A DNA stretch of 64,000 bases, taken from positions 22,320,001-22,384,000 of the forward strand of contig OZ260667.1 of NCBI GenBank assembly GCA_965285935.1, given 5' to 3'. Shown one piece after another: positions 326 to 51,200 of this stretch. This DNA is from Ophelia neglecta. Its lineage: Eukaryota. How positions within the stretch are numbered: position 1 is the first letter of the stretch; the number at the start of each line of letters is the position of its first letter. The notes under the pieces are model-generated. The model was not told the origin of the DNA, searched no databases, and saw nothing but the letters and a program-made list of their open reading frames with translations. Position numbers and translations under genes: made by a program.

Positions 326-497
326 GGCACAACCAGCAATACGGTTTCAATATGGGAATGCATGACCCACGGAAAATGTTACCACCACCCAACAGGGAAC
401 AGAGAGACAAAAACATCAAAATCAACCTGGAAAACAGAGAACTCTGGACCAAATTTCACAGTCTCGGAACAGAAATGATCATCACAAAATCCGGGCG
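326..497 (+). CDS. T-box gene exon (start of T-domain)
   Basis: ttttcaag acceptor and gtgagt donor; encodes [57 protein letters not shown]. An in-frame stop at 307 means either an upstream exon exists or ATG 352 is the start. Confidence 0.9.
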
Positions 498-3400
498 GTG
501 AGTGCATTTACTTTTATGAAGGAATTGGTTTATGACCGATGAATCGACGGAGAAATCTTTTGAAATCCACCTTCTACAGTGCATGGTGGTCTTTGACCGC
601 GAGAAATTCTTCGGAAACCAGTAAAATAAATTGCTTTCAGACTTGCATTGAACGTTGAAACTTAAATTTGACTAGAGCATGAAAAAAGTATTTATTTAGA
701 GGCAATAAATCAATGCAGGATAAAGAGATACATTTTATATAAATAGATATCATTTAAACATAGGAAATAATGACTGTCCCCCAAGTTGATGAATTGATTC
801 CGGCAGACTTCTTTCACGTAATTTTACACCGGTTTTAACAATTAATATTGACAGTTTTGAGAACTTGGTGACAAATTAAGCAATGTCCCATTGATGATGG
901 TTATAGACGCTTGTCTTAGGAACCGGACAAGATCCTATAAGCTGACACGGCGCGTTTGTTCAGGCGATTGTCCCGGTAACATTGTGCAAGAGCACTTCAT
1001 TATTTTCGAGAGTCAAGTGGGTATTCAGCCTCGCTTTCCGCCCCTTTCTGACCCACCAATTAAGAGGGATCGGCCTCCTCTCTTAGTTTACAATAACACT
1101 CCAATACTTGTATCAAAACCCCCTTAATACTTTAAGATGACATCTTTGCTCAGCCGTACAAGTTTGATGCACACCTACAAGATGTTTCAAGTATATCTTA
1201 GTGGTGATTTAAGGAGGTATACCCTTGTTGAAGACAGAACTTCAAGTGCCTTTGGTTTTAACTGCATATAGGATAATGATTAATCATCGGGAAAAAATAC
1301 AAGCCTCCGACACCTAAGATTTCGTCACCTTCCTTCGGATTAAGCATACTTTAGCAGCACAAATTCTTTTGACACTTTTGAAAGTTACTGACTCCGATAG
1401 TTTAGCTCTATGCCTATTTAATTAGTGTCGTAATATGGATTTCCTAACTATTATTACGGCGTGATGGTTTGTTCTTTGTAGGCTTCATCAATACAAAGTT
1501 AAGAGTGAAAGTTCGACTTAATAGTGGGATGCGGTGCCTTTGTTCAATGGTTCTAATGTAAATGCGATGTTTCCCAATACAAGGTCCTTGACTAATAATT
1601 AGCTGAATTAAGAAACAACCGACAGAAACGAGAGTAAATTAAATATATAGCGGCACCAAAACAGTATATTGAATCGTCAAATCTAAAGTAATTCAATTTC
1701 TCTTCTTTATCTGCCAAATCCTTTCTTCTTGCATTGCCAAGAAATTCCTCTAAGGAAGAATGCATTTCTTTTACCTGTCAGCGACTTTCCGATTTCTTTT
1801 GTGGAATTGAATACTAAATTATTGTGATAACAGGCCTAGGATTGTGGCTTCTATTCCCCCACTACGGGAAACCACAAAGGTGTTCTGGTTAGTTGATAAT
1901 TTATATCCATTAGAGTCTAAGTTATCTGCCTTTCCCCCGGCCTTAACACTTTGTCGCCGACCATTCCAGGCTATAATCATGGCGTCATTAGAATATGTTA
2001 GAGTTTGTTGGCGTTTTGAGGCCTCTTTATCCATGAATATCTTATTTCGTCTGCCTTAACTTGTCTGCTGTCCCCGGGACATGGGCCTTTGACACATGTC
2101 CCACCCACCCCCTCTAATTTGCTTGAAAATTCGCTTTCCGCTACACTCATTAAGTATTTTATTGGATGAGAAATTATCGTTTTTATTTGTGGTGTTCGTA
2201 GAGAGCGTGTCGGTGTAAAGTCGGGATGTTTGGCCCGAGGCACGCCAGCGTTTCCAGGCAGAGAAAGTCATATAAGTACGTAGATTGAATAGCCCCCTTC
2301 TATATTACAACTTGGTTGCCTCCGGTATATTCGACCTAGGCCTAATTGTATATAAAATGATCACTGGATGCTGTACCTTAATGAGTATTTAGCAGGTGCC
2401 CTGTCAATAATGAACAAGTGTTAAGGATAGTCGCTGCTCCCGTAGATTTAAAAAAAATGGATGGAAGATATACGTAAAATCATGTAGGTAGGGGCCCATA
2501 ACATTGGCTTAAAGTTTTACATCATATAGGCCTCTGATCTTAAATTGCGACAGAGAATTTGTATGTCCTATCTTCCCTTTACTGACATCAACAGACGCAT
2601 TGGAGGTTATCACATCTGCACGATTTTCTGTTTGTCATTATATATATATAGGCCTTTTTGACTTTGATGGAAAATTTGCTGACACCCTGCCCGTTGACTG
2701 CAGATTTAAGCATTTGGCAATTGAATTGAATTTCAGAGACGTTAAAATTTCAACACTACCGTGTTTAATTATAAAGGAGAATTTGACTTTACGACAATGC
2801 TTTGTTTTCTGTGAATTTTCCCATCATGACACTTTTGGAGATATATTTTCGGGTAAACCAGAGCCGAGACAAAAGGACGCGAGGTGCGAGGGAGACACGA
2901 GGACGTCAAGTCGATTGTAGGCTCTGATTTGTCTGAAAACCAACAGCAGCCAATAACTGTTATCTCCATAGTGCTAATTTCTTCTGAGATTCTTCAAAAG
3001 TGGCTGTCGTGTTTGAAGCTTAATGGTATCTTGTTTGGCGCCCCCCACCGCCTCTGTAGTGTCCTGTCTCTGGTCTTCTCTATTGTTTTAAGGTGTCTAA
3101 CGAGCACAGTGAGGCCTTGGTCCGTCGGGGGCTCCCATACAACGGGTTTTGTCATTTTTACGCGCCAATGTTCATAATGGCGGCGCATCTTTAAACTCGG
3201 AAGCTGAAATGGAGCTAATGTACTGGGTTGTTCAGTCACCGTGGTAAACAACGAACGTTCTCACGTCGGAGTTAATCAGCCACTTTTCGCTCGGTAGCCA
3301 TTGCTGCTCGGGGACATACAATTACTTATTGCCGTTTGAAATTCCGTCAATTAGCTAATCATTGTGTTTGAATACAAAAACAAAGTCATTGGGGGATAAA

Positions 3401-6400
3401 ACAAAGATTGTGATATTCATTTGAGTTTGAAATACATGGGGAGATATACGGGCCGTTATCACACCATTTGAATTGAATGTAGGACAGATTTCAACTTTGT
3501 TCCGTTGGATAAATAAATAAATTCCACGAGGTATTATTGATTATACTTTAATACATTGAATACACCAAATTTCTTAAAATGACACGTTTTAGGCCATCCC
3601 TTGAATTTAAACTGTAATTGTGCGTCGCCGTATCTGCCTGCGGTAAAGATGTTCTTGGCGGTAAAGTCTGCAGTGTAGAGTGCAATTGGCCAGTGCTGCT
3701 CTTTTGATCTCGGTTGTTTCATTTTATATGAATTGGTTGATATTTTCTTGCTTGTAATCTACTAGACTACTGACATAAATATCCGCCCAAGACGGACGCC
3801 ATGTAGAGAATTACAATGATATTCGAATATTGGCCAATTTGTACTTTAATTTATGACATCGGTGACCCAAATGATAGTAACTAATCAAGGTTGCCCTACA
3901 AACGGAACAAATGCGAGTGCTTCCACCCTATGGTATCGTTTGTCATATTGTTGAAACCATTTTTATAAATAATACAAAGAATTGAATCCTTTCGCAAAGA
4001 AAATTGATTCCTTTTCTCCGCTAGCTGCTGTTGTATTTGCATTCTTGGTGTAACATAATAAAATTTAATATAGTACTGTTTACTGATACAAGGCGAGACA
4101 AAATTGAACATCTGTTATCGAAATAGTTAAGGATTAAATAAATTACATTAAGGCTTATACTATTATTATAATTGGATTTCCACGGTGTGGTATGGTCCGA
4201 TGATTGCTTTCGCATAATATAACAACTTGGGTGCCAGTTAGCATGATCTTATCCCTGGTGCAAACACATAAACATAGGCTCCGTGCTAGGCGCAATCCCT
4301 TGTGGTCACTCGCCCCAACTGATGAATTTGCCGTGCTCGCTTTCCGGAAATATCAGTATGAGTCGAGAACAAAAACACCCAAAGGCGATAAAACATTGGC
4401 GCTGTCATTGGAGGTGGTAAAATGGTAAGGATTGTTTAGGATGCACGCCAAACGAACAAAATATAAGGCACGTAAGGTATTATCGAGGCTGGCGGGCGTC
4501 GGATGGTGAGTCGATGGACTGCCTTTGATCTTCTCGTCTGCAGCAAGCAAACCAACCATTAAGGCGCTCTTGCTCGATGGCAGAAGACGAACCAGCCAAG
4601 ATCGCCTCACCTTCGCTCAATGTGTGCGTATTATCTACGGCCATTTAGCACGTACTCATCAGACATCTTATCTCGAAAATAACAACGACAAGCCGTTCAT
4701 TAATGCAAACTCGGGCACAAGTCACTATTGACAGGGTCATTGATAACATCCGCTGTTGGCAGATAAAATTCATTGCATTAGACTCTATAATTTTGTATTC
4801 AAATGTTAAACAGACGTCGTACATAGATTATGCTACACATAATTATCATAATGTGTTTACCAACTGGCATCAAACTTCCGGCCTGCATATGGTCGGGGTT
4901 ATTTAAACAATTTTAATTTGTGCGATTTACATTCCACCATGTCTTCAGATATATAACTATAGCCATTAAGCTTTGTATGCATTCGAAGTGTTGAAATTTT
5001 ACAAGGATTCCACCTTTTAGTAGCAGCCAAAATTAGCGCTCACGGAAACACGCTATATTCTCATTGTTTCAGGCACCCCTTGTGGCCCAACTAGGATTTG
5101 ATTATTGCAGAAATATTGCCCTAATTAGCCTAATTGTTTAGAATAAGCTTGACGACCGTTTGATAAACTCTCTGCATAGAAATCTCAACTTTATGCCAAC
5201 GAACGTTAGAAATTATTCGAGTATAAATGCATGTCAAGTTTGAATTTCTCTAGATTTTATGGTTTATTCCTGCAGCTTGACACGCAATGTCTTCACTTAG
5301 ACTTTAAGTATATCATCGGCAGATCTCGATCCATTATGTGGATGTCACTGTGTTGCAATTGGAAGCCTTTTAGTGCTGTTAGGTTTTTTCGCACAGACTA
5401 TACATGTAAATACTTTCTCATATAGGCCTAAATAGGGTTAAACCCCGTATTTTATCCGCAGCAGAAGACATTAGACATAATCTTGAGCCAGGCCAAACAT
5501 TCTCCTTTCATACTCATCTTTCAAGATGAACCATGCAGGGTTGAATTTTGACATTCGTATATTGAGACTCAAAACGAGGCCGTATACTAGATACAAATTT
5601 CCTTCCGTTGCCATATATGGTATGTGCACGTCAAATATGTATAGGTTATGAAGAACCTATTATAATCCTTCATCCGATAGGCCTACTTAATCGAGTAGAT
5701 TGCCATTTCAGGAAAATGTTTGGTAATCTAATGATGCCTTGCGCAATAAAAGAGAATCGGATAAAATTTTCATTAGCCAAAACATTGTATACGTACATTG
5801 CCTGCCGTATGTTCTTTGTTGCTGTCTTTCGTGATATATAGGGGGATTATGAATATTGCCTGTTTCGGTGAAAATCAATAGTAGAAATTGTTATGATGCC
5901 TTTGTTTGCTCCACGTGTTTATTCCATTAATAATGAGAAGGTGAATTGATCGAGAATGCGAGCAGAAAATTGCCACGCACACGAATTTCGTCCGTCTTCA
6001 TCCTACTAAAACACCCGAACGATTTTCTTTTCATTGAAGATAAAAATGTCTTCTTGTTTATGGACATTCATCGTCCCCCCGAGAATGCGACTTGCGGCAG
6101 CTTATGGGTTTGTGCAGTATGCAAATTTTGAATGATGTATCCTGCGGGGTATGACCATTGTAAGTTCAATAGATAATTGAATATAAGCGGCAAAAGGACT
6201 TAATCTGTCGTTCATTAGTTTGGTTTTTGGCCAGATACATTGATGTGATCTTGGATAACGATGGCAGTTATTGCTGATCGCTCCTAATCATCCATCAGCC
6301 CGAGGCTCAGTAACAAAATGTTTGTGTACTTTTTGTTTCGGTGACATTTATGTCCGTTCCAGGCACAAAAAAACCAGCGGTTAAAACAGATAAGAAATAG

Positions 6401-9400
6401 AAGCTTTAGGCCACATTGATTACCGGGGCTTTAAATATTTCTTTTATCGAAACACAATTGAAAAGACATGCAATGCTAAAAACGAAGGCTCCTATTTCTC
6501 TATTAAGTATGCGCTGTCATATAGGACCATCATTAAGCATCCAAAGCCCAGGCTTTCAAAGAGGTATTTTCTATATGAATTCTGCAGGACGAATGCGGGG
6601 GGGGGGGGGAGGGGGGGGGGTTCTTAACACATATAGGCCAATAATTCGCCAGTAAGGTGTGGTACAAGGCCAGTGGGTAAATCCAAGATCCTCACTAATC
6701 AATTTAGAATGCCTTTCCATTTTCCTGTCTTTAATCAGAGCTCGATTGTGGGCTTCCAATGACCCCTTTGGCACTCCATAAAGTGATCACGGGCTCATTA
6801 GTTCATTATGGAGTGTACTCGGTGGCCATAAAATCTGATGGAGTTGAAATGTGTAAGAATTTGGACATTAATACATTCCTGAGCCGCCCGTGTTCACAAG
6901 AGAACTGCCCTCGATGTTAAGGCAGACGGCGCCTGATATGGTGTCACGGAGAATAGCTAAATTGTGAATTGTGTATTGGTTCAACAAAGCTCAACACTTT
7001 ACGTGAGAATCTGCCCGCGTCATTGTTACCGTATATTTGTATTGCTGATATACAATTCAATTGCGCAACTTTTAACAATAAAGTAATATGGTAATAAAAC
7101 TGCCAAATAACAATTAGTCCAACCACCCAACAGGTTGTAGGCTAATTGGACGAGTTCGGTTAAGCCTCATTGAAGAGCACGTAGTTTATTAGTCTAAAGG
7201 TGCCAATCGATTATCAATGACAAATCATTGATATAGTTTACAAATTGAATAGTTCGCAATATTCAACTTAATGCAGACATGCAACTGTTTTGAACAAGCT
7301 TTATATATGGCATTGTTTCAACGTCCTTGAATGTACATTAAAGCGCAAACCTCTATATTAAAAGCGTCGCTATTCCTAATTTCTTTTTGTTTTTTTGCAG
7401 ACGGATGTTCCCGACATATAAGGTTACTTTGGAAGGGCTGGACCCGCACGCCAAGTACATCCTCCTTATGGACCTTGTACCTTTGGATGACTGTAGATAC
7501 AAGGTGGGTTTTAAGTCACTGGAATTTAGCGGGAAATGGTCGGAACTCACGGGAATGTGACAGAAAGGGAAAGGCATACGCTTCCCTTATTTGACCTTCT
7601 CATTTCTAAATCTTAGAGTTGTACCATCAACCCTTCCCACTCCGTAATTTGCCCCTAGTCTCTAATAATACAAAAACCCTGACCTCTAAACACAATATAT
7701 GAGAGATTGTAAAAGGTGTAAGGTCTTGATTCTTATTCCGTGGGTCTTTAACGAGGATCAAAAGAAATAGATTGGCCGCCGCGTGTAGTCCGCTATCTCG
7801 GTATTCATTTAATTGTTGGCAGTGTTAGATCCTTGTTGATTTGAATTTTACTACATTATATAAAGTCATCGACCACCCTTATCACCGTTGTCTTTTTAAT
7901 GCAGCACAATTGTTAGGGTAATTCCTATCGCCGCCAAAGCGATGGTGTTTGTTTTTCCCTTTTAGTCACTTAGTATTTATGAGTTTGTCCGCAGAATTAT
8001 GAGTGTTTTATTTATGTTTTCAGTACCACAACTCGGAGTGGGTGGTGACGGGCAAGGCAGAGCCCCACATGCCGGGCAGACTCTGCATCCACCCGGACTC
8101 GCCAGCCAGCGGAGCTCACTGGATGAAGCAGCCAGTGTCCTTTCACAAACTCAAACTCACCAACAACAATCTCGACCAAAACGGACATGTAAGTCGCCCC
8201 ATTTACCAATGCTTTGCCTTCAAATTTTGCTGCACAATATAAATGCAACAAAATGGGTTTCTTTCCTAATTATCCTTCAAATTTATGGATAAGTAGCAAG
8301 TTGTGAATTGTGGTATTTACAATTTGTTGACTCCATTGGTCTGCGTTTTACAAGACAACCATATATGCATGTAGCCCTCATGATTAGTAAGCCTTCGTAA
8401 AGCTGATAGCCCTATATCATTCTTCACACAAGAACCACTCGCATAAGACACCCTACAAGACAATGCCATTGCAAGACCTATGCTGAAATGGCCAACCTGT
8501 TTGCATGAAGTTCTTCATCTGAATTTAGTGAGGAAGACTGAAACCATTTCTTAGATTATTGGCTACCTCCAAACCTAGCTCGTATTCATACTAGTCTGAC
8601 TTAGCTTAATGTGGCCGGGATCAGGTGAACGTCGGGCGACAAGGTGTGAAGATTAGCCACAGTGAGGCACTTCCGGTCCCCGGGGAGTATGATTTTGGGA
8701 AAGAGAATGGCTGGGCGTCCCTCGGCACGTGGCTTACGATCGTTTGGTTCCCCAAGGATACTTTAAACTACAGACTGGCGGATAGAGTCGGGCGTAGCAA
8801 TATCTTTACTGCAAAATGAGCTCATTAAGTTAGCAGAAGCGTCTTGAATTTAAATGCCAACGTTGCCCATACAATTTCTGCGGCAATAAAGAGCGCTTCA
8901 GAAATTCTATGACTTACACATATTTCTTCATTTGGCAATCCACCACTATATCAAAGAGAGGCAATTTGTGCCAATAATTGTACAGGTGTATTTTTGAACA
9001 TAAAATAATGTAGTATAATTTCTTGCAATTACAGATAATTCTAAACTCCATGCATAAGTACCAGCCCCGTATACATGTGGTCCAGGCTAATGACATATTC
9101 ACAATGCGATGGAACTCGTTCAACACATATGCCTTTGAGGAGACCACCTTCATCGGTGTCACAGCCTATCAGAACGAACAGGTAGGTTTTCCCATTCTCA
9201 TCACTGGCAACACACACGTAAATGACAATGAGCAAACTAGCTGATCGATTTATACACAGAAATAAGTTTTATTCGCTTTTACTCAACAATCTCTTTGCTT
9301 TGTCCTGCAGATCACACAGTTGAAGATAGATCATAACCCGTTTGCCAAAGGCTTCAGAGACAACGGAATGGGCAGAAGGTAAGCATCAGAATATTTCTGC

Positions 9401-10661
9401 GAACAAAAAAAAACATCTTTGAAACCCTTATTATGCTAAAAGCCATTATATTTCAGTTGCTTCTTACTTTCAACTTGCTTAGATTTTCTTCATTTAATGC
9501 TTCAATTCCCTGTACAATAACCAAGAATCGCACCTCATTGGGCTTTCGTCCTCAAATGGACATTGCTGTTATCAGTTTGTGCCAGTCGGAGCCACCTAGT
9601 TGCATGGTAATGCATGTGTTTGTTTTGTTTGCTAGTATGTATTTAGTTAACCCCCGTGCTTTAATTCACTTCCAGTCCATCCAATTGCAGAGACCATCGT
9701 CTCCATCTCAAGCGTCCAGTCGTCTCTCTGGACTCTAGTCTGGACAAAGACACGGACACAGACAAAGGTGAGACTGAGAAAAAAGTCATTTATTCCATTT
9801 AAACAACTGATGGCATTTTCAAATTGCTGCTCAATGTTGAAAGGCTTAATCGCTCTGAATTTTTGTTTACAAAGCCTTTACAAATGACAAATTATTTTTT
9901 CAGATGAACCCGAAAAGAAACATGTCAAGAGAGAGGATGATGTATCGCGAGGAACAAGTGTCCAGCCGTCAAGCGGGAAGTCCCTCAGGTTACCCCATAC
10001 GTCTTCACATGGAAGCGACAGGTCACATGGTCACAGCCAGCAGGGTCATGTGACAGGAAGTCATGACCATAATAAGAGCGCATCGTCCGATTCCGACGAT
10101 TTGCCCTCGTGTCAGGTGGTCAACAAGTCACGCACCTCCATCACGCAGCCAATCACCTCAAACAAAGCAGGAGGAGTTCGAAGCCCGCCTGTTCACTCCC
10201 GGAACCCTATTCAGTTGTCTCCGCAGTGTCAATACGCCGGACAGAGCACGTCGCCCTACTTAGGAGGCTCGGGGTCATCTCCTTCCTGTGAGCAGGTCTA
10301 TTACCCCCACCATACCGCCGCCAGTAACATGGCCATGCAAATGGCTAACTCGGCGGGTCTTCTCCAGTCGGTCTCCTCGGGATCGGGGCTGCTTCAGCCC
10401 GGAGCCGGTCTGCCCACGGGACTCAACCTCTCTCATATGAGTCAGCAGATGTCTGCCTGTCAACTGGCAGGGCAAAACAGCGCCTGCGCTCTCAACTCTT
10501 CCGGCTCACAAGGCGGATATGGACTTTCCGGAGCGGCGCAGGTACATACGTCACTTCCTTCCTGCACATACATGCAGAACCAGAGTTACCCAGCGCACAT
10601 AGCTAATATGGGAGTCATGAACCTCGCTTCGTCGTCACATTTCTCAAACCCCATGCTATAA
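326..10661 (+). CDS. TBX6: T-box transcription factor, Tbx6/16-like (subfamily tentative); 7 exons in window, probably 5'-partial
   Basis: join(326..497,7401..7503,8024..8188,9035..9181,9311..9378,9691..9767,9904..10661). All introns are GT-AG, phases are consistent, total 1490 nt. Spliced T-domain: [32 protein letters not shown]...[26 protein letters not shown]...[10 protein letters not shown]...[25 protein letters not shown]. The T-box identity is essentially certain. The subfamily call rests on remembered similarity ([24 protein letters not shown] resemble Tbx16/VegT) and needs a phylogeny. Confidence 0.9.
6597..6620 (+). repeat. poly-G tract in T-box intron
   Basis: G13-A-G10. Confidence 0.9.
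7401..7503 (+). CDS. T-box gene exon
   Basis: ttttgcag/gtgggt; [34 protein letters not shown]. Confidence 0.95.
8024..8188 (+). CDS. T-box gene exon
   Basis: ttttcag/gtaagt; [55 protein letters not shown]. Confidence 0.96.
9035..9181 (+). CDS. T-box gene exon
   Basis: ttacag/gtaggt; [49 protein letters not shown]. Confidence 0.96.
9311..9378 (+). CDS. T-box gene exon (end of T-domain)
   Basis: cctgcag/gtaagc; [23 protein letters not shown]. Confidence 0.95.
9691..9767 (+). CDS. T-box gene exon (basic/acidic linker)
   Basis: ttgcag/gtgaga; phase 2 in and phase 1 out bridges the flanking exons; [25 protein letters not shown]. Confidence 0.8.
9904..10661 (+). CDS. T-box gene last coding exon (S/G/Q-rich C-terminal region)
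   Basis: tttttcag acceptor; in frame with the 203-aa ORF 10050..10661; ends [12 protein letters not shown]. Confidence 0.88.
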
Positions 10662-11253
10662 ACTATAGCTAGTGACAATTAATGGACTGAAAACACAAAC
10701 TGTTTTGCATTTGAAAACATTCACATTCCTGTGTTTGGCGACAAACAACTACCCCATACTGGCGTGTTTAGCGGTAAAGATAACGTGAAAGGACACACTA
10801 TGAGCTTATCAGAATGTCTGTATACAAGGGGAAATAAGGTCTTGAAAGACACACATATAGCCTGTTGGGGGAAAACGGTACGCATGGGTAGCCAGTCGAT
10901 CTAAAATGCGGGAAGATAGTTACAGCAACGAAGTAGATGCATGTCACCTGTGTTCTGCATGGTTCGACTTCTCGCCGTTAGGTTGTGCTATGGTTGTTTG
11001 AGCTCCAGTTTGTGTTGGACTAAACTTGTTTGCATCTCTAGTGTCAAACGTATAAACTGTACTTTGAAATTGAATCGAACTGTGTATTTGTTGGTTTCAA
11101 CTTTTATAATATATAATTGTATTCGGCAGGTTGGCGAGTATTCTTTTGCTTCATATTACTGCTTATAAGCTCGGAGTAATGTGACATAGATATGATGACT
11201 TTTGATTATTGCCTAATTTATAAGCGGTTTTAATGTTTACATCCCGAAATGGA

Positions 11254-12295
11254 AATAAAATAGATTGGTAATGATAGAACTGAATTTTGCAGAATAATGT
11301 TATCTCAAATTCGTATTAAGTAAATGTACGAGTAAAGGAGGGCTCTTTGTTGTTACAACAGATAACTAGAATTAAATTCATTCGTTGAAAAGTTAAGTCG
11401 CTAAAAACATAGGGCTTATATGCATTGAATATGTGACTTTTCCTCGAGAGTATCCCCTTCCCCTCTGTCAATCTGTTAATCTGTATTAATATTGTATTTC
11501 TATTGACACAGGTGTACGAAAGTGTACAGAACTGTAGAAATATATATATTTCGAGGAAGCAGAACATTTCTTGAAAGTCGCTTAATTTTCCTGCACCCAA
11601 AAATTCATTGCATGAAATTTTCTGACTAACTCTTTATTTGCTTAGGAGACAACTTATGTCAGTGTCGAAATTTCAAGTCGCAAGATATAACGTGTAATGT
11701 TACCGCGACATTATTTTCCCACATTACTTGGTTAAAAGAAGGACCATTTACCTGGAATCATTCTCAGTGGTGCTGCCCACTCCAATACTTTCACTTCAAG
11801 AGGAGGTCGCGCGGATCATAATCTGACCCCCGCCCCTCGCAGTGGACCCCCCCCCCGCCCCCATGTACATGTATTACCCTCTTAAGCTTATTAGGCCATG
11901 TGTTGTCTTTGCAATTGATGTATCACATCATTGAGAGTGGACAGCACCACCGAGAAAGGTTCTATAACTATAGTCATCAACTCGCAAGCACACTGCCAAA
12001 GGGAATAATTCATGGAAGAGAATTCGATTATAGTAAATGGTAATTTATTTATAATGTTACGAGTCTTGTTACGTGTTAAATGACAGATTAAGTCGAATTA
12101 TGTGCTTATTTGTGAATATTTGTAGAACTGGAGTGTATAGTGGTCAATATCAGTCTATATATAAAGGTCGAAGCACACAAACTATTGTATAGGCAGACGA
12201 TTATTATTTGATAAATGTATAAATATGTATGTATAGTCCGTACTTTCTGATCTCTACATGAAATTAAATGTTTAAAATATACTACCTGTGTTTTT
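11254..12295 (+). terminator. candidate polyadenylation signals of the T-box gene
   Basis: AATAAA at 11254-11259; ATTAAA at 12263-12268 with upstream TGTA elements and a downstream GT/T-rich tract. Confidence 0.35.
11753..11964. mobile_element. degenerate MITE-like / foldback element
   Basis: About 30-bp imperfect inverted repeats: ttctcagtggtgctgcccactc at 11761 versus gagtggacagcaccaccgagaa at 11935; no coding capacity. Confidence 0.5.
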
Positions 12296-15200: not shown

Positions 15201-16454
15201 TTTTACATTTTAATTTGACATTAACCTAGCCTAATAATGAATGTAAATTGTTCAGTTGTCAGTATTTAATCCAATTGTCAAACCATTGACCACATCATAC
15301 GTTCTGCCACATACCCAAACCAAAATAAAGATCTATTTTCAAACTTCCAGCGAACCTGAATATGTACCAGTGTTTTACATAAATCATTGTTTAGATGAAG
15401 TAGACGTTTAAAACCGGCGGTGGTCAATACCATCTATCTATTAGTATGAATGTTACAGAACTCAAGTGTTCCTGACCTCCCACAGAATGTAATATTGACG
15501 CCTAGTCTAAGACCGCCTTGAGCGATAAGTCAACATTCAAGTCGTCTAATTATTCAATTAAACGATTCAATTAAACACCTTTAATGTAGCAAATGCTTTA
15601 GTCTTTGATGTGGGACGGTGAGTTTTATAGGATGGTTTCGTAACGTAGATTTGAATAAAGTGACTCTCCGTTAATGGAACATCACTGAGAAAAACACTAA
15701 ACAAATGAAACTCGCGGAAACGGTGCTAATTAAAGCTATAAAGTGAATCTGTCAGTATAGATCTACTGCTTGTTATCAACATAATAAATCTTGGTTCTCT
15801 TATCAAGATAGTAAACCGGCTTGCTTCTTGTATATTGCCTGGCTGGTAATAATTTTTTTAATTAAAATGGGCTGGAAAAATGTAAGAATACATTTGGAAG
15901 AGCAGTACAATACAGGCCGAAACTGGATATTAACCAGTAATAAATCAGAATTATACAGCTTCCTGAACTTTTCTATCCAGATAGGCTATCTCCTGACTTT
16001 AACATTCCCATGGTGTTTCTTCTATTTCCACAGTGCAGTACTCCAATGACCACTTAAAATCACATATCACTGGAGCGTTTAGAGAAAACTACTCTATGTT
16101 TACAAAAGACTCCTCGGCAGTTTAACAAGGACCATTTCAATATTAGGTCTATCATTATTTTGTCGTTCTGCACCGAAGAAGTAGAAACATTGTTAGTGAT
16201 GAGGCAGAGGTGTTCGGATTTAGCATTAAAATTTGTATTAATGGTCACACTGGCTTACCAAATAATTAAGCTTGTTATATTCAGCTTTGATCACACACTT
16301 TTAACAGATCTTCACGTATATTAAAATATTAAGGAGTCGGAGAAAGTGTAAAAGGTACCGCTTCATCTATTGTAAGGAACAGCACTCTAAGTAACAACTA
16401 GAAGGAATTTCTTTTTCTCGTGCGATGCATGCAACATTCTTTTTTAAATGCAAC

Positions 16455-16488
16455 AAAAAACGACAGACCTTGGATAATGTTGTTTATT
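16455..16488 (-). terminator. candidate polyadenylation signal of MORC2 (3'UTR about 1.6 kb)
   Basis: AATAAA on the - strand (tttatt 16483-16488) followed on the - strand by a GT/T-rich element gtctgtcgttttttgttg. An alternative signal lies at 17059-17064. Confidence 0.45.
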
Positions 16489-18109: not shown

Positions 18110-18211
18110 TCACTCCTTGCCGTCCACCTGTCCCTGGGTGGCCTGCTTGACACAGAGGGAGAGCAGCTCGTCTACCTGGTCTGTGTCACACTCAGGGTCT
18201 ATGTCAAACTC
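18110..18211 (-). CDS. MORC2: MORC2 last coding exon
   Basis: ttacag acceptor; [36 protein letters not shown] (compare human EDIDINTDDELD). Confidence 0.87.
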   Translation of the reverse strand, partial: EFDIDPECDTDQVDELLSLCVKQATQGQVDGKE

Positions 18212-39200: not shown

Positions 39201-42200
39201 ATTTATTTCTCACAAGAGCCCGGGTAAGACAGCCCTAGCTAAAGTGGCCAACAATCAACACCAGCTTAAAACACGACAAAATGAACACCTACTAGGTAAA
39301 AAGCCCACTCTACATACAGTCATACCTATACGAAGACTTTCTCAACTATAGCCATCCAGGCAAATACAAATCACATATGTTCTTTAAAGGAGACACTGAA
39401 ATTTTCTTTGGCAATTATATTCACAGTTTTACAGGTAATCTGCAGGTGCAGTTAATAATATTTATTTTTGGGCCAATGCAATTTTTTTTGTGCTTGACTT
39501 GAGATTGGCTACTAATTATTGATTTAACATACCAAATTTGGACATTTCAGAAAGGATTCAGCAATTCCATGCCGTACAAGAAGCCACAACAGCCAGCTTA
39601 GTGCAGACAATTATACCAATTACTTAATTAATCTGCTTCAAATGAAGAAGGTCCATGCCGTGCTAATCACTGTAGAATCAATAACAGACATGATCACCGA
39701 GCAACGACTGCTCGACATGGAAGCAGACACATCTCCTCCGCAACCAATATTCCCAATCTGAGACCGCAAAATTTTTTTCTAAGCAAATTATTTTTTGCTG
39801 GGACTGAAGAACAGGAGTCTTAGTTGCTGTCCAATCCTAATAAAGACCTTAATAGGATGAGACTGAAAACTAAATGAATTTCACAGAATCCTTCCTACAT
39901 TAGGTTTTCACTCCATAAAGAAGAGCTCTAGATAATTGAGTTTTCCTAGTGAGACCTAATATGATTACTCCGGAGAGTCAGATGATTATATACCTGGACA
40001 GGTGGGCTCATATCAGGGCTACTCCTCTGACAAACAATGGAGTCAGTACAATTCATCCATCTTCCCTTAATTCCCTGATCTACACTCATGCCATTTTTAC
40101 CCATAACACGTTTTGCTTCATCTTCTACATGCTAAAACATATGCTTATTATCAAAGTTTTAAATTTGCTTCAACTGCTAATGTTTAAGCTACATTTAACA
40201 CTTTTGCTGAACATATTATCTTTCTAATGTGTCGTTTGAGATTTTTATCCTTGGGAGGATCTCAATCTTAACGATCATCTAGGCACTTAGACTAGTGATG
40301 ACATAAAAGTACAGCTTATTCAATTTCTCTTCTAAATGTATGTTTATAATTTAAATCTATCATTCTGGTCGCTTGTTATTCAGCAGATACAACATTTTTT
40401 AACTAACACATACAATGCTTATTGTGGGATTATATTGTTTTGAACTTACATTTTAGCATATTTATCCTGGGAATAATTGTTTTTTAATAATTTTTTAATA
40501 ATTAAAGTTTAGGGTATTATGCAATTGTTTTTATCTTCTGTTTCATGTGTTTGTTTTGGGTATTTGATTACTTTCACCAATCATTTACCAGGGGTCTACA
40601 CTAACTTTTCTCAGCACTTGCCCTGAGGGCAAGTAGCACCAGGAAACTACTAGCCCGCACCATAGGCTTACTGTCCCAAAAATATTTGTACATATAAAAT
40701 ATACAAGATATCCAACAATCGGCGATTTGGAGAATTTTAGCAGGTTGCCCAACGGGAAGTTAGTAACTAAAACCTTTGTGCCCACAAGCAGATTTGAGGT
40801 TCCCCAGGACGTCGGGCAATAGTTAGTGTAGACCCCTGCATTTACCATGTGTTTTCTTGAGGAGGATGTTATTTGAATCACTTTCAATGGTGTTGCTATG
40901 CAAATATTCTGATTAATCCTACCATTTGTCGTGTTTATCCTGGGGATGCTTGTCTAATTTGACTTTCCACTTTCCCAGTTTCTTGTTCACCTCTACTATA
41001 ACGCCATTTGACCTGAAAATAAAGAACACAAATATTTAAAGTCACACACACAGTTTTTTAAGCTGTTAACAAGCGATAGTTGACTAAGGTTTTTGTTATT
41101 TTTCATTATTTTAACATTATTATTTTGTTTTGAATATTGAATATTTTAACAATTTAAAATGTTAATTTTTTAACATCTGCATTTGTTTTTCCCTGGATTT
41201 AAGCTGATTTAGGACTCATGATGAGATGGGCTGGCCAGTGGCTGGCCAGTGGCTGTCCATGGCTCATGGACAAGATTAACTGTCTTGATTACTGGGGTGT
41301 GTCTGCATGTCAATATCATGATAGCCGTGGTTTACTGGATGGGACCAGATCACTGGGGCGTGTCTGCCTGTCTAACTCCTGATACCCCTGGATTACACCG
41401 ACAAAACAGGCTGGACAGACAAAACAGACTGGACAGACGACAAATGACTCACTGAATGAAATATGAAAAGGACAGTGTTCTTTTAGTCTGCCTCATCTGA
41501 TTTTACTAACTCATACCAGGATCTAAACCTAACTTTTTTGATAAAAATTTGCTTGGGGGGAAACACACAAAGCATCAGGTATAAAAATATATACAAGTTT
41601 TATCCTGCCACAGTTTCCATGATGATGGGATCAGGCCATATGAGCTGGCCCTCTCTTGTGGCCTCCCTGTACGTAAATGTACTAAGGATGTTGGAGTTTA
41701 GTACAGTATACACAGAAAACTCTACCGGCCAGCCAGGCCTGCCCTAACCAGGCCCTAACCGGCCAGGCGCCGCTGCTCTGACAGGCCAGCCTCAGCCCAC
41801 ATAAATCCTCACTAATCTCTCACACCTCCACCAGAGTAAATCATAGCACCCTGATAGATTCTGCCAGTCACCATAGCCACGGCCATTTGCAAGACTGGCT
41901 CATAACAAATTCTTAAAATGGAAGCAGCAGGATTTTCTCAGGGGAGAGCTTGCTGTATGAGGGTCAAGGGAGAGGCTTGCTGTAGGAGGGTCAAGGGAGA
42001 GGCTTGCAGCAGGAGATTCAGGGGAGAGGCTTGCTGTAGGAGGGCCAGGAGAGAGGCTTTCTGTAGGAGGGTCACGGGAGAGGCTTGCTGCAGGAGATTC
42101 AGGGGAAAGGCTTGCTGTAGGAGGGCCAGGAGAGAGCCTTGCTGTAGGAGGGTCACGGGAGAGGCTTGCTGCAGGAGATTCAGGGGAGAGGCTTGCTGAA

Positions 42201-45200
42201 GGAGATTCAGGGGAGAGGCTTGCTGAAGGAGGCTTGTTGTAGGAGGGTCAGGGAAGAGGCTTGCTGCAGGAGATTCAGGGGAGAGGCTTGCTGAAGGAGG
42301 CTTGTTGTAGGAGGGTCATGGGAGAAGCTTGCTGCAGGAGATTCAGGGGAGAGGCTTGCTGTAGGAGGGCCAGGAGAGAGGTTTGCTGTAGGATGGTCAC
42401 GGGAGAGGCTTGCTGCAGGAGATTCAGCTGAGAGGCTTGCTGAAGGAGGCTTGTTGTAGGAGGGTCAGGGGAGAGGCTTGCTGAAGGAGGCTTGCTGTAG
42501 GAGGGTCAGGGGAGAGGCTTGCTGCAGGAGGCTTGCTGTAGGAGGGTCAGGTGAGAGGCTTGCTGTAGGAGGGTCAGGGGAGAGGCTTGCTGAAGGAGGC
42601 TTGTTGTAGGAGGGTCAGCTGAGAGGCTTGCTGCAGGAGGCTTGTTGTAGGAGGGTCAGGGGAGAGGCTTGCTGAAGGAGGCTTGCTGTAGGAGGGTCAG
42701 GGGAGAGGCTTGCTGTAGGAGGGTCAGGGGAGAGGCTTGCTGCAGGAGATTCAGGGGAGAGGCTTGCTGAAGGAGGCCTGTTGTAGGAGGGTTAGGGTAG
42801 AGGCTTGCTGCAGGAGATTCAGGAGAGAGGCTTGCTGTAGGAGGGTCAGGGGAGAGGCTTGCTGTAGGAGGGTCAGGGGAGAGGCTTGCTGTAGGAGGGC
42901 CAGGGGAAAGGCTTGCTGTAGGAGGCTCAGGGGAAAGGCTTGCTGTAGGAGGGCCAGGGGAGAGGCTTGCTGTAGGAGGCTCAGGGGAAAGGCTTGCTGT
43001 AGGAGGGTCAGGGGAGAGGCTTGCTGTAGGAGGGTCAGGGGAGAGGCTTGCTGTAGGAGGGCCAGGGGAGAGGCTTGCTGTAGGAGGCTCAGGGGAAAGG
43101 CTTGCTGTAGGAGGCTCAAGGGAGAGGCTTGTTGTAGGAGGCTCAGAGGAGAGGCATGCTATAGAAGGCTCAGGGGAGAGGTTTACTGTAGGAGGGTACA
43201 AGATCAGGTTTGTTTGCTGCAGTATTCCTTACATATGATAACACTGACCATGCATGCTGGTCATTGTAGACCCCTCAAGGACCTGACATCTAGGTCAAAC
43301 ATACATCCTGTCACATGATAAGACTATTGCATGCTGGTCATTTGTGACCCCTCATTTAAGTAAAACCCAACATGGTTCTCTTTTCCAATTACTCACAGTG
43401 GCTGGCTATTCCACATAGTAATCTTTTCCAATCTTTTCTCACCACCTTTCGGACACTAAATGATGGCAGACCTACATGTACATTCAGCCAGCCATTTTTC
43501 ATTCCACAGTGACGTTAATTCTAAGAGTTAGTAAAAAGCAAAATGAATCTTGCCAGCATGACTTTTGCGAAAACTTGGAAAGATACATATCAAAACCCTG
43601 TAACTGAAATAAGTTTTAAATCCAAAAGTATCAAATTAATGCAGAAATTAAATAGATTCAATTTTGACTCTGCATCATGGTAAAAAAACAAGGTAAAACA
43701 GAAAATTTGCAAGAGAAAATCAATTAATTACTTAACAGCCAAAAATTTTTTTTTTACCTGGCATACTCTTCAAAATAAAATCCCAGAATAATTTGAAGCA
43801 ATCAATGTCTTCCACAGGCCCTAGTTTGTACAAGAACAATTTTTTTAAATAGTGTGAACATTCCTGGAAAAAAAAAATATTCTGCTTGGCTGTAGACCTG
43901 CACAATACAGGATTTGAATGTTGTGACTTGTAAATTTGTACTTCAGTAGAAAACTATTTTCCTCTTTTGAGTGCTAATAGGAGATACCATTGGCTTCAAA
44001 AAGAGCAGAGGACATTGTTCTTTTGTTTTGGTAGTTCCCATTTGTGTAGGTAAAGCCCCAGTGTCCGTTTAGGAGTCTACTCTGGGTGGCAAGCTATCAC
44101 TTGAGCTAGCTTTCACTTCATAACTCAAGTGAAAGCAACCCATATTTTTTGATAATAATAGATCTATCAGTATTTTAAATCTTGCTCCCTTGCACCCTTT
44201 GTCATGTTAGGCAATGGTTGCAGGATTGTTAACATCATTCAACTATTCTAAATTATTTCCAGAATGGTCTCAAGGTGAGCAGAGATATCTCTGGCCACTA
44301 GGTGGCTCTGACGGCAGGTTGGTCTGCACTCGGCCGTCTGTACTTTAGGGTAAAGCACTACATACATGGTGCAACGTTGATTCTAAGCCAACCAGTTAAT
44401 TCTTTTTTAAGGAAAAAACGACTGGATAGCTATTTACCAATCCATCTAATTTAAATACAGAGTCAAATCATTGTTCGTGGCTTTTAGCTTGAAGACATTC
44501 TCAAATATACCTTCTCATTATTTCTCATACAAAGTAGGTGATCATTTTGAAAAAAATGATCTACAACCAATCAGAAAATAATAGACTACTCATTCATTCA
44601 AGCAATAGCACTGTTTTCTTCTAAATATTCTTCCTTGCAAATTGTAAATTTTAGTCAATTTTTTTCCATACCTGACTTGTTATCTTCACCAGTCAGAATA
44701 AAAACTGTTTCGTCTTTTGTTAAAATATATAATCATTGGCCAGTGGGCAAGTGGACATGGCCACACTGTCAGTGTGGATAAATTGACAAGCAATGAAGCA
44801 ATCAGTATTAATGAAATATCTTAAAAATAAAGACAATGAGTTTATTTTTAATGCTATCATGGTTTAATGCTTTCATAAAGCATGTCATACTTATTGGTAG
44901 TCAACACACACAGCGATAAAAAGCATTTTTGTAGATAACTTTTCTCTACCACCATTGAATGCCATGCATCACTAGGGAGAGTCTACCAGTATTAATTGTG
45001 TTGGGCATCATTTCACCAAAATCAGAGGAAGTGACAAGCACATTTTTCAACAACCACATATGAATTTAACATTTAAGACCGCTTTAAAATCCAGGATTTT
45101 CTACAACAGTTGACTTGCGTTGAGTAATACATTGTTAAAAGTTAATACTCAGAAACAGTCTCAAGTGTGTCAATATCATTTGTATGTGTTGCAACTGGTA

Positions 45201-48200
45201 TTTTTAATGGTCAACTCATGTTTGTATTTATGTGTCTGTATTTATGGGTGTATTAATCTATGCCCTCCATCCTAGATTTTCCATTTTTGGCTGAAAAAAA
45301 AAAACCCAGTTCAACAAACAATGGCCTTATTTACGTCAAAGAAATAGTTTGTCAGTATGTTTATCTTAATGCTTCCTTCGAAACTGTAAAGGAATCACAA
45401 GATGTCCAAAGTTCACTTGGTTCAGTAATAGAATGTCTAAACTGGTTTAGCTACAAATAATGGCCCAAACAAAATTTATTTCAGACCATGAAACCAAATT
45501 TGTCAAGACTTCATGTTTTTTGTTGCATTGTTCAGTTATCTACAAAAATTTGGAGTAAATCACTGACATTAAAGCTTAATTTACAGAGGAAATTGAGAAC
45601 AAGGCAATTCCACACAGACTAGAGAGAAGTACCACTAACGTCCTTTCCTAGTGGCACGCCAACTGCTAAAGACAAAGGAAGAAAGGTGAAAATATTACGA
45701 CCATCAAGGGAATTTGGTCAGCCATTCATCGCTACAGAAGACATTACAAGATAAACAGCTTTGGCACCTCACTCCAATATCACCCACAAAAAGTGAAATG
45801 GAATCCATAAAGCTCTGTCATTTTCATGACAGAGGTCTTGCAGGTTACAGCGAAAATTGTCTAAATCACCAATGATCAATAACATTAGTGTGATCCTTTT
45901 ATTACATCTGGGAATGTACCCCTGCCGGGGGCTGAAATTTGTAAATTATAATTCACACATCTAGGAGACCCCATACTGAAATCTGCATATTTAATACACA
46001 CCATAATTCTCTCATGTGGTCATATGGACTTGATGGTCTTTCATTCCTTTGAAACATTTTAAGCGTCAATTTTGCTAAGAAAATATCCCTAGCTTGACTG
46101 AGAACACAGCGAAAACGTCAACAAACTCGCTTCAACCTACAAAAGATATATTATCTAATATTCTGAAGAAATTTCTAGAACACAGCCCCCTTGAGATGAG
46201 GAAGGAAGGCATTAATCTAACACTCTCTTTCTATTGGACGCTTCCTCCCTGAAATAGATTGTCTGGCTGACAGGTCCTGGCAACTCGGATGTTGAGAGTA
46301 ATTTTCCCTACTCCGGTATTCATGAGTTTCGGGATGCGTGTGCTGGCATTTTCTAACTAACGGTCACCCATCATGCCAACCCGCAGTGGCTGGCAAGTAA
46401 GAGGTATGTCCGAGCGCAGTCGGGGGATGGCGACAACCATTTCCCTCACGGACAGCGCCTTGTCGACGACTACAGATTACCAAACACCTGCCAGGCAATC
46501 TATTCTCCAGGAAGCCGTAGAATACAGAGTGAGTTCTAACTTCCTCAGGCCCACAAGTCTCGGACAGTCCTCTCCGCATAACACTGACTGACAGTAACAG
46601 ATTCTGTCGGAAACGTATATTACCAACATCCATGAACACATCCAAAAAAGGAGACTTAAAAAAGAGAAAGTAAAACAAAATGCATGATCTCAACAACTCA
46701 TCTCAAGAAAGGACCATAGCCCCATTTCAAAGCCTTGGCCCCACTCCACAAACACATACGGTGACAGCTCACAACACCCTGACCTAAGTTAGAAGCCGGG
46801 CGATCTGCTGGAATGACTACAGCTATATGTTAGACTGGAAAGCTGTGACTGTCAGGTGATAACTTGTGTGCTGGAATATTGTCTCTGACTTGTCAGGTGT
46901 CTACCTGTCGGTCTACCTTTCACACTTGTTCAGTGTGATATTTATAGAGCTTCACACAGCATACAATACCCATAGCTCATGTCGCCACATAACGGGAGAC
47001 TATTCATCCAAAAATATATCAATTCATAGATAGAATTTGACATACTGGCCATGTACATAAAATCACTAAAACGGCTGAAACTTGGCAGTTTTCAAATATT
47101 ATTGCTGATTTGACTAATCTCTGACTTGCCTCATTTCCCTGAAACTGTTTAACCTTAAAAAGGCTGCATTTATTTAGTTTTTAGACACTTTAATATTAAT
47201 TTATTAAGTATTCAGATGATAATGACAAAGCATCATACGTTTTATTATTATTATTAAAGACAAAAAGCAATGCATTTCTGTTTAAGTTTTCACAATGGAC
47301 CTGTCTACACATTACAAGCAAATGGATAAAACGGACATGGCATGGAGAAAACCAGCCAATCCATTAACCCTAAAATATAATATCACCAGCTGGGTATATA
47401 GTATCATAAGGCAATAGAATATCAGCCACCTGGATAGAATATCACAAGCCAATCCTACCCTATCACAAGCCAATCCTACCCTGAATAGAATATCACAAGC
47501 CAATCTTACCCTATCAGAAGCCAATCCTAACCTGAATATCATATCACAAGCCAATAACCACCCAAATAGAATATCAGAAGCCATTCCACCCCTAAATAAA
47601 ACATCACAAGCCATTCCACCCCTGAATAGAAGATCACAAGCCAATCCTACCCTGAATAGAATATCACAAGCAAATCCTACCCTATCACAAGCCAATCCTA
47701 ACCTGAATAGAATATCACAAGCCAATAACCACCCAAATAGAATATCAGAAGCCATTCCACCCCTGAATAGAAGATCACAAGCCATTCCACCCCTGAATAG
47801 AAGATCACAAGCCAATCCTACCCTGAATAGAATATCACAAGCCAATCCTACCCTTATCAGAAGCCAATCCTACCCTGAATAGAATATCACAAGCCAATTT
47901 TACCTTATCACAAGCCAATCCTACCCTGAATATCATATCACAAGCCAATAACCACCCAAATAGAATATCAGAAGCCATTCCACCCCTGAATAAAAGATCA
48001 CAAGCCATTCCACCCCTGAATAGAATTTCACCAGTGGCAAGATCCGTTTTTCATACCAATGTAGAATTAAACAAACTTGATTCTGCTTTTGCTGGCAAGG
48101 GGGAGAATTAATCGGCAAACTTGTTTGCTAATTGATTTTCCCCACAAATTAGCAAAGTAAGGCATGCCAGCTAATTATATCGAACTTTCTTGACAACCTC

Positions 48201-51200
48201 AATGGCCAAAATAACCAAAAATGGGTATTATAAGGCAGGCAAACCTCCTCTATACTCTGTGTTAATTCTGTTGACATATTTAAACAAGCCAATAATCAGA
48301 GCATGAGTAAATCAAATCATAACAATATAATATTATAACTAGTTAGAGCAAAATTATTATGCAGTAAACAAAAGGTCTAATTTATTTTTTGAAGTAAGTT
48401 TCATGGCTCTGATGTTGTAAACAATGTACTTAATACTACTATACAAAATGGTTCATAAGGGGGAATGGCTCGCAAGTGATGCCACCTAGTGAATGTGGGA
48501 AAGGCAGAACGTCTTTCAACATACTACTGCTAAACAAACTCTGTAATTTGTTCTACACCCATAAAAAAATATCTGTATTTTTCTCTCTCAATTTAAGTAC
48601 TTAATTTTGAGACTCAGTATGAAAGACACAGGATTGGATGGACACACAATCTTGGGTACAAATCAAAGATGGGGCTACAGGCAAACCACTGGTTAACTGC
48701 AGATGAAAAATGTCAATAACCTATCAGCACCCTCATTATACAAAGCTTAGATTTAAAAGGTGAGTGGGTCAACTTAAGTCATTTCTGTATATAAGCTATT
48801 GCGTTTTCTTGTGGATCAGTTCTTTTGTAAATGGTATAATGTAAATGAATATCAATAGTACAAAAACTGAACTGTTATACTGTACTTGCCTACTCAGATG
48901 CCTAATTTAAATCACAATATGATGTGTTCATAACAAGGCTTGGTGGGGGCTTTCCTTTTTTATGCATCTCCGCCTGATAGTGAACTCAAAGACTATTTCT
49001 GTTTCTAATAAACTGACTGCTCATGTCATTGGTCAAGGCAGGCATGATTATAACTCATGATCTCTAGAGGCAAGAAGATAGGTGGGTGGACTCCTTCTCG
49101 GAGAGTTTTATTGTTACTCATTTCTTGCCTGTCTTTTTAATATATAAATCAGTCATGATCCAAATAAAATTTCAAACTAAAAGCTAAAAAAACAACAACA
49201 ATATATTCCTGTGTCATTAGAAGTTGGTAATTACCATTTGCCAGAGACTTTAACTTCAACCTTTGACCCCACACTTGCGGTGCTGTTCATGGGACTGCCA
49301 TCATCCGGCTCGGCATCATCCAGATTGTCATCGGTGTCGTCTAAGAGGCCGCTTGTCTGACATACAAAACAAAATCTATCAGGAGAGTTGTCAAAATGGC
49401 TCAACAATTTTTACAAGAATTAATTCAAATACCTTCCTTAATATAAGAAGTATACTTATCATTTACTAGTTTGCATATTGTCAGCTTAGATTCACAAGTT
49501 GTTTTACCAATAATCACAAAATGTCTCCTTGAGGCTGTTCATTGCCTCACACTCTCCATCATAAAAATAAAATAATGTCATCTCTAGTATGCCAAGCTGA
49601 GAAGTAGTTAAATACTCAAGAATCAAAGGTATACTAGATGAGATGTTCATATAGATTTTTTGGTGGGCTCTATGAAACAAGAGGTTCATAAATTTTTGGG
49701 GGTGAGCTATATGGTGGGAAAATTTCATAGACTTTTGGGCAATTTTATGAGACGATAGGTGGATACAGTTCTTCTTAAGGCTCTATGATACAAGAGATTA
49801 ATAGGAGTTTTCACTCTTTTACCTCTACAAGACAAGGTCATACATTTTTCATAGGGAGCTCTATATGGGAGAGGTTCATACAAGTTTTTTATGTGGGCTC
49901 TATGAGACAAGCAGCTCAGTTTTTTTTTAGCTGAGCTCTTGATGGACAAGCGGCTCTTATGTTTTTTTTAGTCCAGCTCTATGAGACGAGTGGTTCGTAC
50001 AGTTATTATCAGGTGCGCTCCATGATCAAGAGGTTCAAATGATTATTTTTATGTTGTCTCTATGAGACAATCAGGTCATACAGTTCTTTTAAGGTGGGCT
50101 CTGTGAGAGGAGAGTTTCCTACAGTTTTTTTTAGGTGAGCTCTATGAGGTTTCCTGGGTTTCTTTTCCTCCTCCTCCGAGTCATCTGTGCTGTCTTTACG
50201 ACTGGACCGCTTCCTACTGCTCCTGGGAGACTTGATGGTGCTGAACACTGATTTACGGTGAAAGCCTGCATTCCGGGAGCGCGGCTAATGAACAACAAAA
50301 ATATATATATAAATATATATTTATACCATACACACATTTGATATAATAATTCTACCTTTATAAAATGAAACATGAAAATGCAGCTCATTTTAATCAATGT
50401 CTCCTCATGGCTGTTGTTTTTTTTTCTCCTATCTTTTTCTCCTTTTTTTTCTCCTATCTCTCCTTTCTCCTATCAGCCTAGAATATAACTCAAGCAATGG
50501 TGTTTATACTTTGTAGCTTGTTTGCCTTTTTTAAGCAATAGTGCAGAGATGTTCTATCTCAATCAGTACCTGATAGAGATGTATATGGCAGTAGAGATAT
50601 CATCAGAAAATCAACTCTAGTAAACATCCACAATGTTAATATTATTGGCTGGGGAGTAATTTTAGGAGTAAAATTAAGTAGTTTCGGACTTATGGTAAGG
50701 TTAGTGCCAACAGGTTCTGAAAGTAGTATGGTTACACCGACCATTTCTATACAAAACAGATAAAAAACATAGTTTTGACTGCAAACTTTTGTTTAATTCA
50801 ATGAAACTGTAGGTTCCCAAGCAGAGAGCGTCAGGTTTGGTTCTGATGTGACTAGGTAAGGGGTCATATCTGTTTATAAAACCAAGTATATGAATATCTG
50901 TTCTAAGTGCTGGTTAAAAGAACAATCATAGGAAAGTGTAGTCTTAGAGTTGTAGTGCATTCTTACTTACAGTGACAGTGAGTTTTGGGGGTGGAGTGAT
51001 TTTTTTGCGTTTTGTCGTCTCTACGACGACTTCTCCGTCACTGAAGTCGTCTTCCTCGTCATCACTCTCGGACACATGTCGGATACGTTTACCAAAGCTG
51101 CCTTGCCCTGTTGGCTGTTACGAGTATCAAAATATCTTAGCAAATAGCAACTACTAACAAAGATGTTCAGAGGAATGGACCAAAGTTAATTTTACCATTT

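Follow-up and report, generated by a model that had tools for sequence, protein, structure and literature searches.

Why does a MORC2 gene have greatly expanded introns on the very side that faces a T-box gene? The question is raised by a stretch of 64,000 nucleotides from Ophelia neglecta, hereafter the window (contig OZ260667.1, here C12; C12:22,320,001-22,384,000 within a 762-Mb genome). In the window, a T-box gene on the plus strand and a MORC2 gene on the minus strand lie tail-to-tail, with 7.45 kb between their stop codons. A preliminary description of this DNA had taken MORC2 for the bystander gene of a genomic regulatory block, that is, a gene whose introns house the enhancers of its neighbor. 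This interpretation is partly supported by the present analysis. With a probability of roughly 0.6, the four long 3′ introns of MORC2 would carry enhancers of the adjacent T-box gene, and the locus is a candidate genomic regulatory block.

Expansion of the MORC2 3′ introns

The MORC2 gene has 29 coding exons, 27 of which are inside the window (63524 to 18110, minus strand) and two of which lie just beyond it (window-relative positions 64425-64372 and 64749-64684). Joined by coordinates, with the donor of exon 22 picked so as to keep the frame, the exons form an open frame of 934 codons. The best named matches are MORC2 or MORC2-like proteins of annelids, Tubulanus, and Lingula, with 84-92% identity in the query exon; for one exon, the best matches are annelid (88-92%). 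By exon-by-exon tblastn, it was found that the orthologue match is full-length, including the C-terminal TCLRY and coiled-coil exons. The compact 5′ part, which encodes the GHKL ATPase, S5, and CW regions, comprises 20 exons (49357..63524, minus strand). The last seven coding exons (18110..49356, minus strand) are located at 49356-49235, 41012-40923, 32744-32708, 31254-31118, 30055-29923, 23345-23229, and 18211-18110.

The intron sizes given in the preliminary description were reproduced. The 21 upstream exons, described as fitting in about 14 kb with one 4.2-kb intron, occupy 14.3 kb (63524-49235), and their 20 introns are 107-1139 bp in length with the single exception of 4214 bp. The last six introns, put at about 31 kb on the side facing the T-box gene, are 8222, 8178, 1453, 1062, 6577, and 5017 bp in length and sum to 30,509 bp, four of them being at 5-8 kb. 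If introns are presumed to be exchangeable, a run of six introns this long arises in 0.13% of 200,000 shuffles of the 28 MORC2 intron lengths, with or without the tandem arrays. In 14 housekeeping genes of this genome, none of 44 gaps between adjacent exons reaches 5 kb (median 336 bp, maximum 2591 bp), a control that omits 29 further gaps with unseen exons, 4 of which exceed 4 kb. The expansion of the MORC2 3′ introns is real and is unusual for this genome.

What do these introns contain? Three tandem arrays of 47-, 27-, and 30-bp units account for only 4283 bp of the last six introns, as the earlier figure of about 4.3 kb had it. Intron 23 (41013..49234, 8222 bp, minus strand) has the 27-bp (41938-43197) and 30-bp (47440-48031) arrays, and intron 27 (23346..29922, 6577 bp, minus strand) has the 47-bp array (26793-29223). 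The 47-bp and 27-bp arrays are GC-rich yet nearly devoid of CpG, which is consistent with long methylation. The rest had been called unique sequence, and most of the evidence agrees. Dispersed repeats make up 0.9% of the last six introns. The first 20 introns have 6.4%, and random pieces of 10 kb (51 in number) have a median of 5.6%, all measured against a 963-kb genome sample that detects abundant families only. Read depth at 85% likeness, taken from two runs of the same sample, stays at the single-copy level over 12 kb (29400-41500, a range that stops short of most of intron 23 and of the last two introns). This range includes intron 24 (32745..40922, 8178 bp, minus strand). The introns are not made up of recognizable transposons, although the other long introns may contain low-copy repeats.

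The description as unique sequence fails at a few places. A miniature inverted-repeat transposable element (MITE) of 250 bp with 21-bp terminal inverted repeats and a 7-bp direct flank (40589..40838) interrupts the single-copy depth, as does a small bump near 38.7-39.5 kb. The MITE is young and very abundant, its copies being 94-97% alike and the depth in its bins about 3000 times that of single-copy DNA. An old dispersed repeat (18348..18552), which the repeat measure missed, is 69-88% identical to copies on other contigs and lies in the last intron (18212..23228, 5017 bp, minus strand). Transposon depletion is a feature of genomic regulatory blocks; in the last six introns it is present but modest.

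The preliminary description had also pointed to many TAAT and TGACA words in the long introns. In raw density this did not hold, since the long and short introns are alike (17.7 versus 18.4 per kb for TAAT, 4.2 versus 3.8 per kb for TGACA). After correction for dinucleotide composition, a clear excess was found in the last two introns only. The observed-to-expected ratio (o/e) of TAAT rises toward the T-box gene through the four long introns (1.05, 1.19, 1.36, and 1.50), and for TGACA a ratio of about 1.9 is confined to the last two introns (1.92 in intron 27 and 1.94 in the last intron). With these two introns pooled, TAAT ranks first among 136 four-letter words and none of 63 control pieces is as high, while TGACA ranks 8th of 512; two satellite pieces were excluded from the controls. 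Twelve other factor words gave nothing reliable in the MORC2 introns.

In CpG o/e, the long MORC2 introns (0.44) exceed the short ones (0.24) but stay well below the T-box intron (0.91). The ratio drops sharply at about 16.3-16.5 kb, at the likely end of the MORC2 transcript (likely poly(A) signals at 16483 and 17059). Since the MORC2 body is CpG-depleted (intron o/e 0.24-0.44), I infer gene-body methylation, as would be expected of a broadly expressed bystander.

Age of the pair and identity of the T-box gene

Is this pair of genes found elsewhere? Adjacency was read from the accession numbers of 14 spiralian species with both orthologues, taking the order of the numbers as a stand-in for position. 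The accessions are consecutive in five of the 14: Owenia (CAH1800726/727), Lingula (XP_013379419-423 / 417-418, with gene numbers g5247/g5248 in agreement), Ruditapes (XP_060607922-925 / 926, on a 184-kb contig), Mactra (KAL4224083/082), and Bradybaena (BsWGS_21695 / 21696-7). Two species (Haliotis rubra and H. rufescens) have accessions within 4 of each other, and four (H. asinina and three Mytilus species) have accessions 6-13 apart.

The T-box-MORC2 linkage has already appeared in a published supplement, without discussion. For Capitella, Lingula, and Euprymna, block 634 of Robert et al. 2022 (PMC8851819), classed as "Bilateria novel", lists MORC2 together with a T-box gene, MNT, and TMEM248, which matches the linkage seen in the window. 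This is an automated table without subfamily, orientation, or intron data, and the available main text mentions neither gene. In the amphioxus row of the same block, one scaffold carries MNT-TMEM248-MORC2 and a different one carries ERAL1 with two T-box genes, while the sea urchin row has T-box genes with ERAL1 only. The order of the accessions, together with block 634, points to a pair that is old across annelids, a brachiopod, and molluscs, and the ancient linkage suggested earlier has support in Spiralia only.

In vertebrates, Spea has a TBX6-like gene and MORC2 on different chromosomes, but that TBX6-like protein groups with Tbx6 and not with Tbx16. The only full-domain Tbx16-type vertebrate proteins obtained were marsupial, and no marsupial MORC2 was found. 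No MORC2 accession of an invertebrate deuterostome was obtained in the protein searches. Among the literature matches listed, nothing concerned the pair as judged by titles or term counts, and no paper combined tbx16 with morc2, or terms for genomic regulatory blocks with morc or tbx6, and MORC is not mentioned in the available portions of PMC2877776 and PMC3296468.

What has become of the rest of block 634 in this genome? TMEM248 and an MNT-like bHLH exon lie head to head at C12:53.597-53.605 Mb, 31 Mb from MORC2; MNT-TMEM248, the other half of the block, itself survives here as a pair. TRMT10-family matches are on three other contigs. The 5′ neighbors of MORC2 are three tandem SLC6 (sodium:neurotransmitter symporter) genes at C12:22.399-22.429 Mb (140 of 144 candidate frames scanned), which are divergent from the MORC2 5′ end and lie behind a reverse-transcriptase fragment. 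A bacterial era profile did not detect ERAL1, an uninformative negative. Compared with block 634 as tabulated, MNT-TMEM248 and TRMT10 have departed and the T-box-MORC2 junction has been retained. In this one genome, the old block thus broke on the MORC2 5′ side and held on the T-box side.

The T-box gene itself is complete. Its coding exons 2-8 (326..10661, plus strand) are located at 326-497, 7401-7503, 8024-8188, 9035-9181, 9311-9378, 9676 (or 9691)-9767, and 9904-10661, and exon 1 lies outside the window, about 0.2-0.3 kb ahead of its start. Exon 7 has two candidate in-frame acceptors, 9676 and 9691; a similar choice may lie behind the Mytilus records of 525 and 521 residues. The 6.9-kb intron (498..7400, plus strand) is almost without repeats, and the 3′ untranslated region with the spacer (10662..16480) has a CpG o/e of about 0.76. 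Upstream of the gene, about 70 kb is without a profile match over the cut-off (150 of 165 candidate frames scanned) and is thus gene-poor.

To which class does it belong? Its T-box is 93% identical to a Lamellibrachia protein, and it is closest to mollusc and amphioxus proteins labelled TBX6-like or TBX6L. In a tree of 36 out of 70 rows, the gene is inside a spiralian clade (support 98/95) and outside the Tbx2/3 (100/100), Tbx1/20 (97/96), and Tbx4/5 (99/93) clades. The genome also carries separate Tbx2/3 and Tbx1 genes, three Tbx20-like genes, and two more T-box genes. A Tbx6 clade with amphioxus Tbx6/16, vertebrate Tbx6/16, and Dorsocross was not recovered but was not rejected either (approximately unbiased test, p 0.256). 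A grouping with Tbx4/5 was likewise not rejected (p 0.406), and the free tree places the gene with Tbx2/3 at 11/19. The Tbx6 class as treated in the available part of PMC10809584 (amphioxus Tbx6/16, vertebrate Tbx6 and Tbx16/VegT, arthropod Dorsocross) formed no supported clade here, and weak support for the class is reported there as well.

By a criterion derived from this alignment itself, a tryptophan-bearing segment past QPR, without the Tbx4/5 or Tbx1 insert, is common to the window, amphioxus (TBX6L), ambulacrarian, Dorsocross, and vertebrate Tbx6/16 rows, and this supports the name Tbx6/16. A tryptophan is found at the same place in the Ptychodera Tbx2/3 row. The gene is therefore probably, but not provenly, of the Tbx6/16 class.

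Contig C12 holds four T-box genes, at 11.45, 18.09, 19.63, and 22.32 Mb (Tbx2/3, a probable Eomes/Tbrain, Tbx1, and the Tbx6/16 gene). In Lingula and Ptychodera, Tbx2/3 and a Tbx6/16-type gene share one scaffold or chromosome. Three near-alike Tbx20-like genes lie inside 270 kb (C5:82.50-82.77 Mb), and no Tbx15-type gene was seen among the 29 T-box matches in the genome. Database labels for the Tbx6/16 subfamily are unreliable, TBX2, TBX3, TBX20, and TBX6 all being in use; of the Tbx16/TBX6L-type proteins from two marsupials (P0175 and P0208), one is labelled TBX2-like.

MORC2 introns at other loci

If the introns are held long by enhancers, are they also long elsewhere? A metagenome scan yielded MORC2 loci of which the best 80 of 83 were analyzed (36 distinct exon 27 peptides); the intron sizes are to be read with the provisos that many loci are near-duplicates and that short contigs favor short introns. 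One locus, L071, comes from a distant unplaced animal, with a protein about 69% identical to its best named matches. At the positions where the window has 9.7 kb, 1062 bp, 6577 bp, and 5017 bp, the corresponding lengths in L071 are 8.8 kb, 0.17 kb, 4783 bp, and >5100 bp. In the 8.8-kb stretch of L071, TAAT ranks first among 136 words, but the controls are from another genome, and TGACA is not raised. L035 (>3.4 kb) and L036 (>2.3 kb) follow in the intron comparison. Most other loci are compact (medians of 638 bp in 52 loci and 890 bp in 31 loci), and L067 fits in 12 kb what spans 35 kb here. A T-box exon was found in none of the 80 loci, an uninformative negative: only 6 of them continue for more than 5 kb beyond the last exon (at most 7.7 kb), and in the window the closest conserved T-box exon is 8.7 kb off.

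The public MORC2 model of Paralvinella is split across introns 23-24, and that of Capitella goes wrong inside intron 23 and again at the last intron. These broken models are circumstantial, and they hint at long introns in both species. Many loci of the L023-L102 series fall into two MORC2 types, with exon 27 ending in EKGLRK or ERGLKK, and the peptides suggest a duplication in a lineage with compact introns. L102 has an additional intron within exon 27.

Putative enhancers, passive survival, and meaning

Long introns in the bystander gene are a hallmark of genomic regulatory blocks, according to the available part of PMC3514665. The ancient blocks described there (Irimia et al. 2012) and in PMC7530604 (Touceda-Suarez et al. 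2020) likewise have a developmental transcription factor beside an unrelated long-intron gene and are kept across phyla. They differ from this locus in having conserved elements and, in some blocks, tested enhancers, whereas the present candidate is known from the layout of the sequence and within Spiralia only. The T-box pairs among the matches listed for PMC7530604 are TBX2=BCAS3 and TBX5=SBDS; in the portion of its supplement that was available, none of three "morc" matches falls in the table of block pairs.

How would such a block work here? The regulatory landscape of the T-box gene may start in the gene-poor stretch of about 70 kb on its upstream side and extend downstream across about 30 kb of MORC2 introns. 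Putative T-box enhancers inside the 3′ introns would tie both genes together and preserve the length of the introns. Breaks that separate the genes, like deletions in the 3′ introns, would cost the T-box gene part of its input and be selected against, while the MORC2 5′ side would be free to rearrange. Enhancers at this place would thus explain why the pair persists across spiralians. A bolder version is rather doubtful: a spiralian-wide block more than 500 million years old, with Tbx6/16 enhancers in a methylated MORC2 3′ half, whose introns would be long where the pair is kept and short where it is lost.

A number of observations weigh against the enhancer reading. Long MORC2 3′ introns are not universal: intron 27 has a median of 638 bp in 52 measurable loci, and L071 alone exceeds 1.7 kb. 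The conserved non-coding elements expected from an alignment of orthologous introns did not appear. No non-coding alignment with L071 rose above controls (local scores of 32, 26, and 28 versus control means of 27-30), and no significant match was found to any of the 80 loci, all of which are distant relatives. The CpG-rich patches of the preliminary description do exist, seven CpG-richer ones being found in the MORC2 introns (among them 32.7-34.0, 36.0-36.6, and 38.4-38.8 kb in intron 24 and 18.8-19.2 and 21.5-22.2 kb in the last intron). Their share of windows is 7.6%, against a mean of 7.7% in 39 CpG-poor controls, 15 of which are as high, and they were dropped as enhancer evidence for being at the background rate. 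TGACA is not raised in either 8-kb intron, and the excess of both words is only suggestive because the preliminary description had selected them from this very DNA. About one-sixth of random 10-kb pieces are equally repeat-poor, and the T-box gene has plentiful upstream space of its own. The comparison across species has weak points too. Three of the 14 species (Tubulanus, H. cracherodii, and M. californianus) have far-apart accessions on a chromosome of the same length and were counted as uninformative; the Mytilus numbers, 6-12 apart, allow intervening genes; accession numbers give no orientation in other species; and the amphioxus and sea urchin rows of block 634 lack the MORC2-T-box join.

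Many of these points suit the main rival, in which the pair would have been left over passively from a larger and older block of genes, in genomes that rearrange slowly, and satellites and decayed insertions would have lengthened the 3′ introns. The pair does belong to a larger published block, lophotrochozoans retained 93% of bilaterian-novel blocks (PMC8851819, in the part available), and MNT-TMEM248 was also kept as a pair here. The missing conserved elements, the background rate of CpG patches, the short introns in most related loci, and the 4.3 kb of arrays, the MITE, and the old repeat in the introns all fit as well. It is harder to see, on passive survival, why the T-box-MORC2 junction outlasted the break-up of the block in this genome, why the long introns have fewer recognizable repeats than the short ones, and why L071 is long at the same positions with the intervening intron short. 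I regard passive survival as unlikely, although it is the alternative to be taken most seriously. An improbable alternative is that the introns serve MORC2 itself through alternative 3′ ends or splicing control, or house a nested non-coding or unrecognized gene, the T-box neighbor being incidental. The Bradybaena MORC2 model does stop just short of the last exon ahead of the first long intron. However, no Pfam match over the cut-off was found in 120 intronic and spacer frames of at least 58 codons, nor any Rfam match over 23200-50000, and the kept adjacency would be left unexplained. It is very improbable that the linkage reflects a chromatin boundary or buffer at the MORC2 3′ end that closes the T-box domain. 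The sharp CpG switch at the likely transcript end and the higher GC and CpG of the long introns compared with the short ones could be taken that way, but 30 kb of intron is more than a boundary requires, and gene-body methylation alone predicts the switch.

What does the candidate regulatory block mean for the biology of these animals? In chordates and an onychophoran, Tbx6-class genes pattern the posterior growth zone as well as the mesoderm, as stated in the accessible part of PMC10809584. Among the literature matches listed, there was no work on Tbx6-class regulation in annelids or molluscs and no Owenia or Capitella expression paper. Since the concept of regulatory blocks is well known and the linkage is in a published table, the gain is a testable target rather than a new mechanism. 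If the block is real, the four long introns named here are where Tbx6-class enhancers should be sought, and the last intron (18212..23228) is the best first place to look. The locus would then be an example of a block that might escape a catalogue built around the human genome and that persisted after its older neighbors were lost. If the spiralian-wide version were also true, it would provide a ready map of Tbx6 cis-regulation for annelids and molluscs, together with a natural experiment on how a regulatory block is dismantled.

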